Virus record (IMG/VR): IMGVR_UViG_2974630879_000001
Span: 1 to 64,000 of that record
Origin: a virus
Taxonomy: Duplodnaviria; Caudoviricetes
Direction: 5' to 3' (one strand)
DNA length: 64,000 nucleotides
The notes below the pieces were generated by a model. The model did not search any database. It worked only from the letters and a program-made list of their open reading frames with translations, and was not told the origin of the DNA. Positions 18,551-18,601 of the stretch are shown here, piece after piece. The position numbers were made by a program, and so were the translations under genes. The first letter of the stretch is position 1; each line of letters starts with the position of its first letter.

Positions 18551-18601
18551 GGGCGGCGCAGATTTGCTCTTTGTGGGTTTAATTCCCATGGCTGTCCACC
18601 A
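18551..18601 (+). ncRNA. 51-nt anticodon-less tRNA mimic with alanine identity elements
   Basis: GGGCGGC/GCTGTCC acceptor (G1-C72, G2-C71, G3:U70), A73, CCA; T-like arm GTGGG-TTTAATT-CCCAT. Confidence 0.65.

Follow-up and report, generated by a model that had tools for sequence, protein, structure and literature searches.

Alanyl-tRNA synthetase (AlaRS) charges minihelices through the G3.U70 pair (PMC9976931; PMC11221534), and minihelices are also standard substrates of RNase P, which cuts them in vitro (PMC11221534). The alanine minihelix and microhelix go back to Francklyn and Schimmel (1989, as cited in PMC9976931 and PMC11221534), and the bacterial alanine identity set comprises A73, G2-C71, G3.U70, G4-C69 and G20 (PMC9976931). 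In the tRNA-like domain of tmRNA, G3.U70 is invariant, the D arm is deformed and binds SmpB, and a connector helix leaves at the position of the variable arm (PMC3985003). Mycobacteriophage DS6A carries little more than this domain, and a similar molecule strongly inhibits tmRNA, perhaps through the titration of SmpB (PMC4131195); CDS-less tmRNAs of ~65 nt occur in the plastids of Mallomonadaceae (PMC11915505). Finally, RNAC and RNAD are small RNAs of unassigned role, produced from the tRNA region of phage T4 (PMC3014915, PMC9697503).

The 51-nt unit described here, at positions 18551-18601 (+) of the window (the whole 64,000-nt stretch of phage DNA that we analysed), can be compared with each of these. 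Like the synthetic minihelix-Ala, it combines an acceptor stem with a T arm and has G3.U70, G2-C71, A73 and CCA without any anticodon. It differs in being natural and phage-encoded, in the insertion of 15 nt (a 3-bp hairpin and a linker) that gives a three-way shape instead of a simple hairpin, and in three details: an extra G at the stem junction, C4-G69 for G4-C69, and a T56 loop. Like the TLD-only tmRNAs, i.e. those reduced to the tRNA-like domain in DS6A and in the Mallomonadaceae plastids, the unit is small, of alanine type, devoid of anticodon arm and of tag reading frame, and in the case of DS6A the likeness extends to being phage-borne. However, these molecules were assigned by tmRNA homology, whereas the unit matches no tmRNA model and has neither D-loop analogue nor connector helix; the comparison with DS6A is made by description, its TLD-only gene not having been located by our CCA-dependent motif scan. 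RNAC and RNAD, likened by description only, are also non-tRNA small RNAs from a phage tRNA region, but they are much larger and were not described as alanine-type minihelices. Judging from its sequence, the unit derives from a tRNA and is an alanine-type acceptor/T-arm RNA gene or what remains of one. On balance we lean towards a maintained, processed and alanine-chargeable RNA without decoding ability, which would belong to a kind recurrent in phages, the unit itself being known from one sequence.

The window comes from a complete IMG/VR phage record of 76,335 bp with direct terminal repeats. The best matches of its tRNA region are N4-like phages of the genus Pokkenvirus—Xanthomonas virus PB119 and the Stenotrophomonas phages Pokken, Paxi and Piffle, phage Philippe being more distant—and the genome content includes a 3,442-aa ORF, rIIA, a DNA polymerase and a portal protein. 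Seven tRNA genes, all on the + strand, were identified by ARAGORN and Rfam between 18209 and 19515 (Met, Ile, Tyr, Ser, Pro, Thr and Gln). The unit sits on the same strand, tRNA-Ile ending 8 nt upstream and tRNA-Tyr beginning 13 nt downstream, spacings that agree with the gene-like placement noticed in the first-pass annotation. No sigma-70-like promoter was found across ~17592-20295, the tRNA island, and a strong terminator (20260-20289) closes it, so that the tRNAs and the intervening units are most likely part of one transcript coming from upstream. No RNA-related domain was found in the flanking genes. Of the 12 CCA-ended units that the island contains, 8 are preceded by AT at -2/-1, as is the mini-tRNA unit. 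ARAGORN called no canonical tRNA at the unit, in its standard or its relaxed-score modes, and RF00005 gave no match there at E up to 10; only the mitochondrial mode of ARAGORN returned a call, overlapping and implausible.

From 5' to 3' on the + strand, the unit is preceded by an 8-nt leader, GTTTCAAT (18543-18550), which follows the CCA of tRNA-Ile and ends with AU at -2/-1; the U at -1 (U18550) has A73 as a possible partner. The 5' strand of the acceptor stem, GGGCGGC (18551-18557, i.e. G1 G2 G3 C4 G5 G6 C7), is recovered by sequence, fold and motif scan. At the place of the D arm stands a 3-bp hairpin, GCA-GATT-TGC (18558-18567), found in the minimum-energy and centroid folds and also in precursor context, followed at the place of the variable region by the single-stranded linker TCTTT (18568-18572); sequence and fold agree on this linker and on the absence of an anticodon arm. 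The T arm (18573-18589) has the stem GTGGG/CCCAT (18573-18577/18585-18589, with G49.U65) and the 7-nt loop TTTAATT (18578-18584). An extra G, 18590, lies between T stem and acceptor stem. The 3' part (18591-18601) consists of the acceptor strand GCTGTCC (18591-18597, with U68 at 18593 and U70 at 18595), A73 (18598) and an encoded CCA (18599-18601). A 13-nt trailer, GCTCTTTGACAAT (18602-18614), leads to G1 of tRNA-Tyr, and its terminal CAAT repeats the end of the leader. The acceptor pairs are thus G1-C72, G2-C71, G3(18553).U70(18595), C4-G69, G5.U68, G6-C67 and C7-G66. Both the 7-bp acceptor stem and the 5-bp T stem are present, and G18590 interrupts the 3' strand of what would be a 12-bp stack: it either bulges out or forms a sixth T-stem pair with U18572, which gives an alternative 7 + 6 arrangement.

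The ViennaRNA minimum-energy fold of the unit (-18.7 kcal/mol) has the same shape as the centroid fold and leaves the ACCA end free, and the computed fold is retained inside an Ile-mini-Tyr precursor. The shape read by eye in the first-pass annotation—a 7-bp acceptor, a 5-bp T arm with a TTTAATT loop, a GCA-GATT-TGC hairpin and no anticodon arm—is therefore that of the sequence and of the ViennaRNA fold. The stability of this fold is unremarkable (z = -1.73, 13 of 200 shuffles folding equally well), and the helix is weak, with three G.U pairs and the bulged G. The T loop retains T54, T55, R57 and A58; its sole departure from the canonical T loop is a T in place of C56. C56 is universal in the T loops of tRNAs, where its pairing partner is G19. 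This partner is absent from the unit, which has no D loop, and T56 is seen too in other D-loop-poor genes of alanine type (TTTAACT in L152, TTTGAAT in L261, both discussed below).

Among the elements of alanine identity, the unit has G3.U70 (G18553.U18595), A73 (A18598) and G2-C71 (G18552-C18596). Two minor elements are missing: C4-G69 stands instead of G4-C69, a pair also found in natural phage tRNA-Ala genes with the same T stem, and G20 is absent, being impossible in a molecule without D loop. We evaluated these elements on 391 distinct tRNAs from phage and metagenome loci, 24 of them tRNA-Ala and 367 of other isotypes. The combination of G2-C71, G3.U70 and A73 occurs in 21/24 phage tRNA-Ala genes, a figure that is not independent because many loci were picked by a pattern derived from the element, and in only 1/367 other tRNAs, a low background that is independent of this selection. 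The combination is in this sense diagnostic, and the alanine identity proposed at first sight is strengthened. G3.U70 alone is less telling: it is carried by 11 of the 367 non-alanine tRNAs and is not rare in the island itself, since tRNA-Gln and an 86-nt unit have it.

These two carriers deserve a short description. The tRNA-Gln (UUG) gene, 19441-19515, has A1-U72, G2-C71, G3.U70 and U73, unlike the Gln genes of PB119, Pokken, Paxi and Piffle, which have G3-C70; this could mean a risk of mischarging, or be a sign that G-C pairs frequently drift to G.U in this phage. The 86-nt CCA-ended unit (18292-18377), which follows tRNA-Met, has G1-C72, A2-U71, G3.U70 and G73, a G.G mismatch at 7:66 and a GTAGCTC stretch resembling tRNA positions 7-13; no tool calls it a tRNA.

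The conservation of G3:U70 in related phages, suggested earlier as a check, is not seen: none of 16 related loci carries the unit, and a relaxed scan of them found no alanine-type mini with a CCA end. Nor did the relatives examined have a full tRNA at the homologous locus, the case that the first-pass annotation had named as refuting. In PB119, Pokken and Paxi tRNA-Tyr begins within ~10 nt of tRNA-Ile, and in Piffle an unrelated 98-nt spacer separates the two genes. PB119 has GTTTCAAAGT at the position of the leader and then directly tRNA-Tyr, so that compared with it the mini and its trailer behave as a 64-nt insertion flanked by CAAT. Close relatives of the unit were also sought more widely: BLAST against 50,697 phage records gave chance matches only, an exact-pattern search of IMG/VR gave no match, and a 17-mer metagenome scan gave, among the matches listed, only chance matches and no relative. 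A 20-mer from tRNA-Tyr had phage Pokken as its sole match, and the 136-aa neighbour protein has relatives 97% and 93% identical, on contigs of 5.6 kb and 7.1 kb.

Its simplest origin, as far as sequences can tell, would be a tRNA-Ala-type gene lacking ~25 nt, in which case GCAGATTTGC would be left over from the 5' half of the D arm. The sequences are compatible both with the arrival of an already short unit and with a shortening in this lineage. Full-length genes of the corresponding type exist in phages: the tRNA-Ala genes of L190, L142, L192, L149 and L182 share with the unit the first four acceptor pairs (start G1-G2-G3-C4), A73, CCA, the T stem GTGGG/CCCAT with G49.U65 and a place in a tRNA array. 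They differ by having a D arm and an anticodon arm, the anticodon being UGC or CGC, and the unit is ~25 nt shorter. The L182 gene was considered as a source on account of its near-identical acceptor stem, and was rejected, the match not being significant after pattern selection; the L182 phage is unrelated, with no match to the DNA polymerase or to the 681-aa upstream protein of the window. Another gene of this kind, in a 110-kb phage with 20 tRNAs (L152:7583-7649, ~70 nt), resembles tRNA-Ala(UGC) and was missed by ARAGORN. Its D hairpin, of 4 bp with a 4-nt loop, is joined directly to the acceptor stem, and it may represent an intermediate between tRNA-Ala and the minis.

Similar units occur elsewhere. 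Scanning the complete IMG/VR with a pattern composed of GGGC, 8-35 nt, a T arm and then GTCCACCA, we found in phage tRNA arrays five other anticodon-less minis of alanine type, from three independent families. All five escape ARAGORN and have U at -1; their acceptor stems are fully paired, and tRNA genes lie 4-8 nt away. One is a 62-nt unit (L198:10164-10225); three, of 58-61 nt, form a homologous family (L216:2113-2170, L265:2813-2873 and L269:13313-13373) in which a compensatory change turned A5-U68 into U5-A68; the last, of 67 nt (L261:7923-7989), has a GATTCGAG motif and a short capped helix, and resembles the tRNA-like domain of tmRNA. The unit of the window fits with them by its alanine-type ends, its T arm, the less than ~35 nt between these and its place in a tRNA array. 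It shares with them the same ends and T arm, by design of the search, as well as U at -1, whereas the middles are unrelated in sequence and of 15 nt here against 23-32 nt there, so that common descent is not claimed; an alignment by MAFFT even placed the acceptor strand of the window unit wrongly.

A control scan with the same T arm and histidine-type ends retrieved 44 distinct sites, 29 of them full tRNA-His genes and 15 of them 3' fragments without a paired 5' strand, and no anticodon-less mini among the 44. No convincing mini of another isotype was found around the ~340 other tRNAs flanking ~120 pattern-selected loci. Across 185,579 bacterial and archaeal species, each represented by one genome, the alanine pattern gave two units only. 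The numbers behind this class-level enrichment are small and the patterns were designed from the window element; read with this in mind, the enrichment suggests that the anticodon-less form goes with the alanine type and with phages. A restriction to alanine is what would be expected if such RNAs were kept because AlaRS needs no anticodon. The two bacterial units are near-identical, of 52 nt and of alanine type (L363:849-900 and L369:967-1018); they come from a Ruminococcaceae MAG and from Pseudoflavonifractor phocaeensis.

How the unit came to be there, and whether it is anything more than a relic, can now be weighed. The modest free-energy z-score, and the many IMG/VR matches to the same 3' end that are tmRNA or tRNA att fragments, could suggest either a hairpin formed by chance or an attP-type fragment from the 3' part of a tRNA or tmRNA gene. 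We measured how often a composite motif (7-bp acceptor, 5-bp T stem, TTNRA loop, NCCA) arises in the 76-kb genome after Markov shuffling: it is expected 0.025 times per shuffled genome, and once G3.U70 and A73 are required none of 200 shuffles contains it. In the real genome perfect stems are found in 5/7 tRNAs and in the mini unit, all on the + strand; if one acceptor mismatch is tolerated, six tRNAs and the mini unit match, all on the tRNA strand, and the mini unit is the only non-tRNA match of the motif in the 76-kb genome. The unit is not a chance structure. Neither is it an attP fragment, because its 5' acceptor strand is present and pairs 7/7, which att fragments, lacking a paired 5' strand, do not show; besides, no integrase gene was found in this N4-like genome with terminal repeats. 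Both forms of this explanation are effectively refuted. We hold it very doubtful, though less flatly so, that the unit is a true TLD-only tmRNA, homologous to ssrA and titrating SmpB as proposed for DS6A. With G3.U70, A73, CCA and a T arm, and without anticodon arm, the unit is built as the tmRNA tRNA-like domain (PMC3985003), DS6A offers a phage precedent and a similar molecule inhibits tmRNA (PMC4131195), and another IMG/VR mini, L261, has the GATTCGAG motif and the capped helix described above. The D-loop analogue of tmRNA has a motif of the GG/UUCGAC type, with GAC before the T stem. Nothing like this motif, no GAC before the T stem and no connector helix is present in the unit; no Rfam tmRNA model matches it at E up to 10, the tmRNA mode of ARAGORN is empty, and no SmpB gene was found in the phage genome. 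The earlier idea of a mimic of the tmRNA tRNA-like domain has thus failed at the level of sequence.

A neutral tRNA-Ala remnant is, on the other hand, a strong rival, which we regard as a real possibility if not the favoured one. A phage tRNA-Ala would have lost ~25 nt (the 3' half of the D arm and the anticodon arm) in this lineage, and would be excised, perhaps charged, only as a by-product without selected role. A recent internal deletion in a tRNA-Ala gene would look identical to what we observe, GCAGATTTGC is reminiscent of a D arm's 5' half (G10, C11, A14, T16, T17, G18), the bulged G, three G.U pairs and mutated C56 fit a relaxed constraint, the unit is missing from all relatives examined and is thus lineage-specific and possibly young, and the tRNA arrays of these phages do gain, lose and shuffle units. 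Yet all 12/12 stem pairs, T54, T55, R57, A58, A73, CCA and the AU of the leader are intact, no relative has a tRNA-Ala as a possible source, and the alanine-type minis recur, one family being conserved. Moreover, neutral deletion remnants should occur in all isotypes, and none was seen among ~340 other tRNA neighbourhoods or 44 His-type sites. Another source, a PB119-like tRNA-His that suffered a 24-nt deletion and a 2-nt register shift, its G5.U68 becoming G3.U70, seems improbable to us. In a gap-tolerant alignment the tRNA-His of PB119 certainly ranks first among 36 distinct tRNAs from the relatives (score 37, the runner-up scoring 25), the match has p ~0.0007 by structure-preserving randomisation, and this gene adjoins tRNA-Tyr in PB119. 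But the same tRNA-His is also the top match of the five unrelated alanine-type minis, with scores of 41-45, and the resemblance therefore reflects the common GTGGG/CCCAY T arm and TGGGC/GTCCACC ends; being generic, it was rejected as a specific sign that a deletion had recently occurred. In their native register, pattern-selected phage tRNA-Ala genes reach scores of up to 42, and several coordinated changes would be needed to rebuild a 7-bp stem, A73 and CCA in the new one.

To return to the maintained, chargeable RNA that we favour, the unit would be a 'top-half' tRNA gene, an acceptor/T-arm minihelix cassette within a polycistronic tRNA/RNA operon, co-transcribed with its neighbours because it has no promoter of its own. 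RNase P would cut the precursor between U18550 and G18551, and the 13-nt trailer would be trimmed back to the encoded CCA, leaving the 51-nt RNA. AlaRS would then charge this RNA through G3.U70, G2-C71 and A73, and the product would have no ability to decode. We infer this processing and alanine charging from the sequence of the unit and of its surroundings; a non-decoding, alanine-chargeable RNA would be consistent with the published charging of minihelices and with the comparable phage units.

As for the role, our first candidate is a mimic or competitor of an alanine acceptor, acting for example on SmpB in place of the tmRNA tRNA-like domain or on AlaRS. Second comes a decoy that would engage immune effectors directed against the 3' ends or acceptor stems of tRNAs: toxSAS enzymes pyrophosphorylate the CCA end of tRNA (10.1101/2024.07.05.602228) and Cas12a3 cleaves tRNA tails (PMC12851939). 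A mere processing by-product is ranked third. It is a bolder proposal, and one that we hold rather unlikely, that the phage deliberately makes an alanine-chargeable, non-decoding 'top-half tRNA' acting in trans. Such an RNA would weaken ribosome rescue and tagging by competing for SmpB, AlaRS or EF-Tu against the tRNA-like domain of tmRNA, or would decoy immune effectors of tRNA ends, and it would be one of many phage minihelix RNAs forming a widespread class not yet described.

Since 1989 the alanine minihelix has existed as a laboratory construct; a natural version encoded by a phage would mean that viruses exploit the anticodon-independent recognition by AlaRS to make a charged RNA that never decodes. 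Should this RNA act on tmRNA-SmpB or on immune systems directed at tRNA ends, it would be a new type of small anti-host RNA, and would help to make sense of the many non-tRNA units, so far unaccounted for, of phage tRNA clusters. If it is only a decaying tRNA-Ala gene, the finding is ordinary, yet it warns that remnants can still be charged.

A few observations on the neighbouring genes and on the relatives can be added. The tRNA-His gene of PB119 (L001:1940-2037) has no encoded CCA, and is flanked by an 8-nt inverted repeat, CACTGAGG/CCTCAGTG, which would extend the acceptor stem of the precursor. A clear tRNA-Tyr gene at L001:1841-1926 is left unannotated in the GenBank record of this phage. 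In Stenotrophomonas phage Yut2, a 'tmRNA SsrA' (L257:5218-5591) starts inside a tRNA-Leu and ends inside a tRNA-Thr, and is probably an annotation artefact.

The island of the window contains other units that are not tRNAs. The 169-nt spacer 19268-19436 follows tRNA-Thr and is 85% identical to L001:1580-1747, the spacer that in PB119 follows tRNA-Met; by this comparison it is a conserved structured RNA, relocated within the array. The spacer 18887-19195 folds well (z = -3.09), with parts 72-84% identical to Pokken, Paxi, Piffle and PB119, and is probably a conserved non-coding RNA. Positions 17794-17843, upstream of the tRNA array, match the type III hammerhead ribozyme of Rfam below threshold (25 bits, E = 0.058), and the CUGAUGA and GAAAC cores of this putative ribozyme are intact. 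Lastly, a 50-nt CCA-ended hairpin unit (19694-19743) has the stem GTCGCCC/GGGCGGC, U73 and a preceding AT; the heptamer of its 3' strand is identical to the 5' strand of the mini (GGGCGGC).
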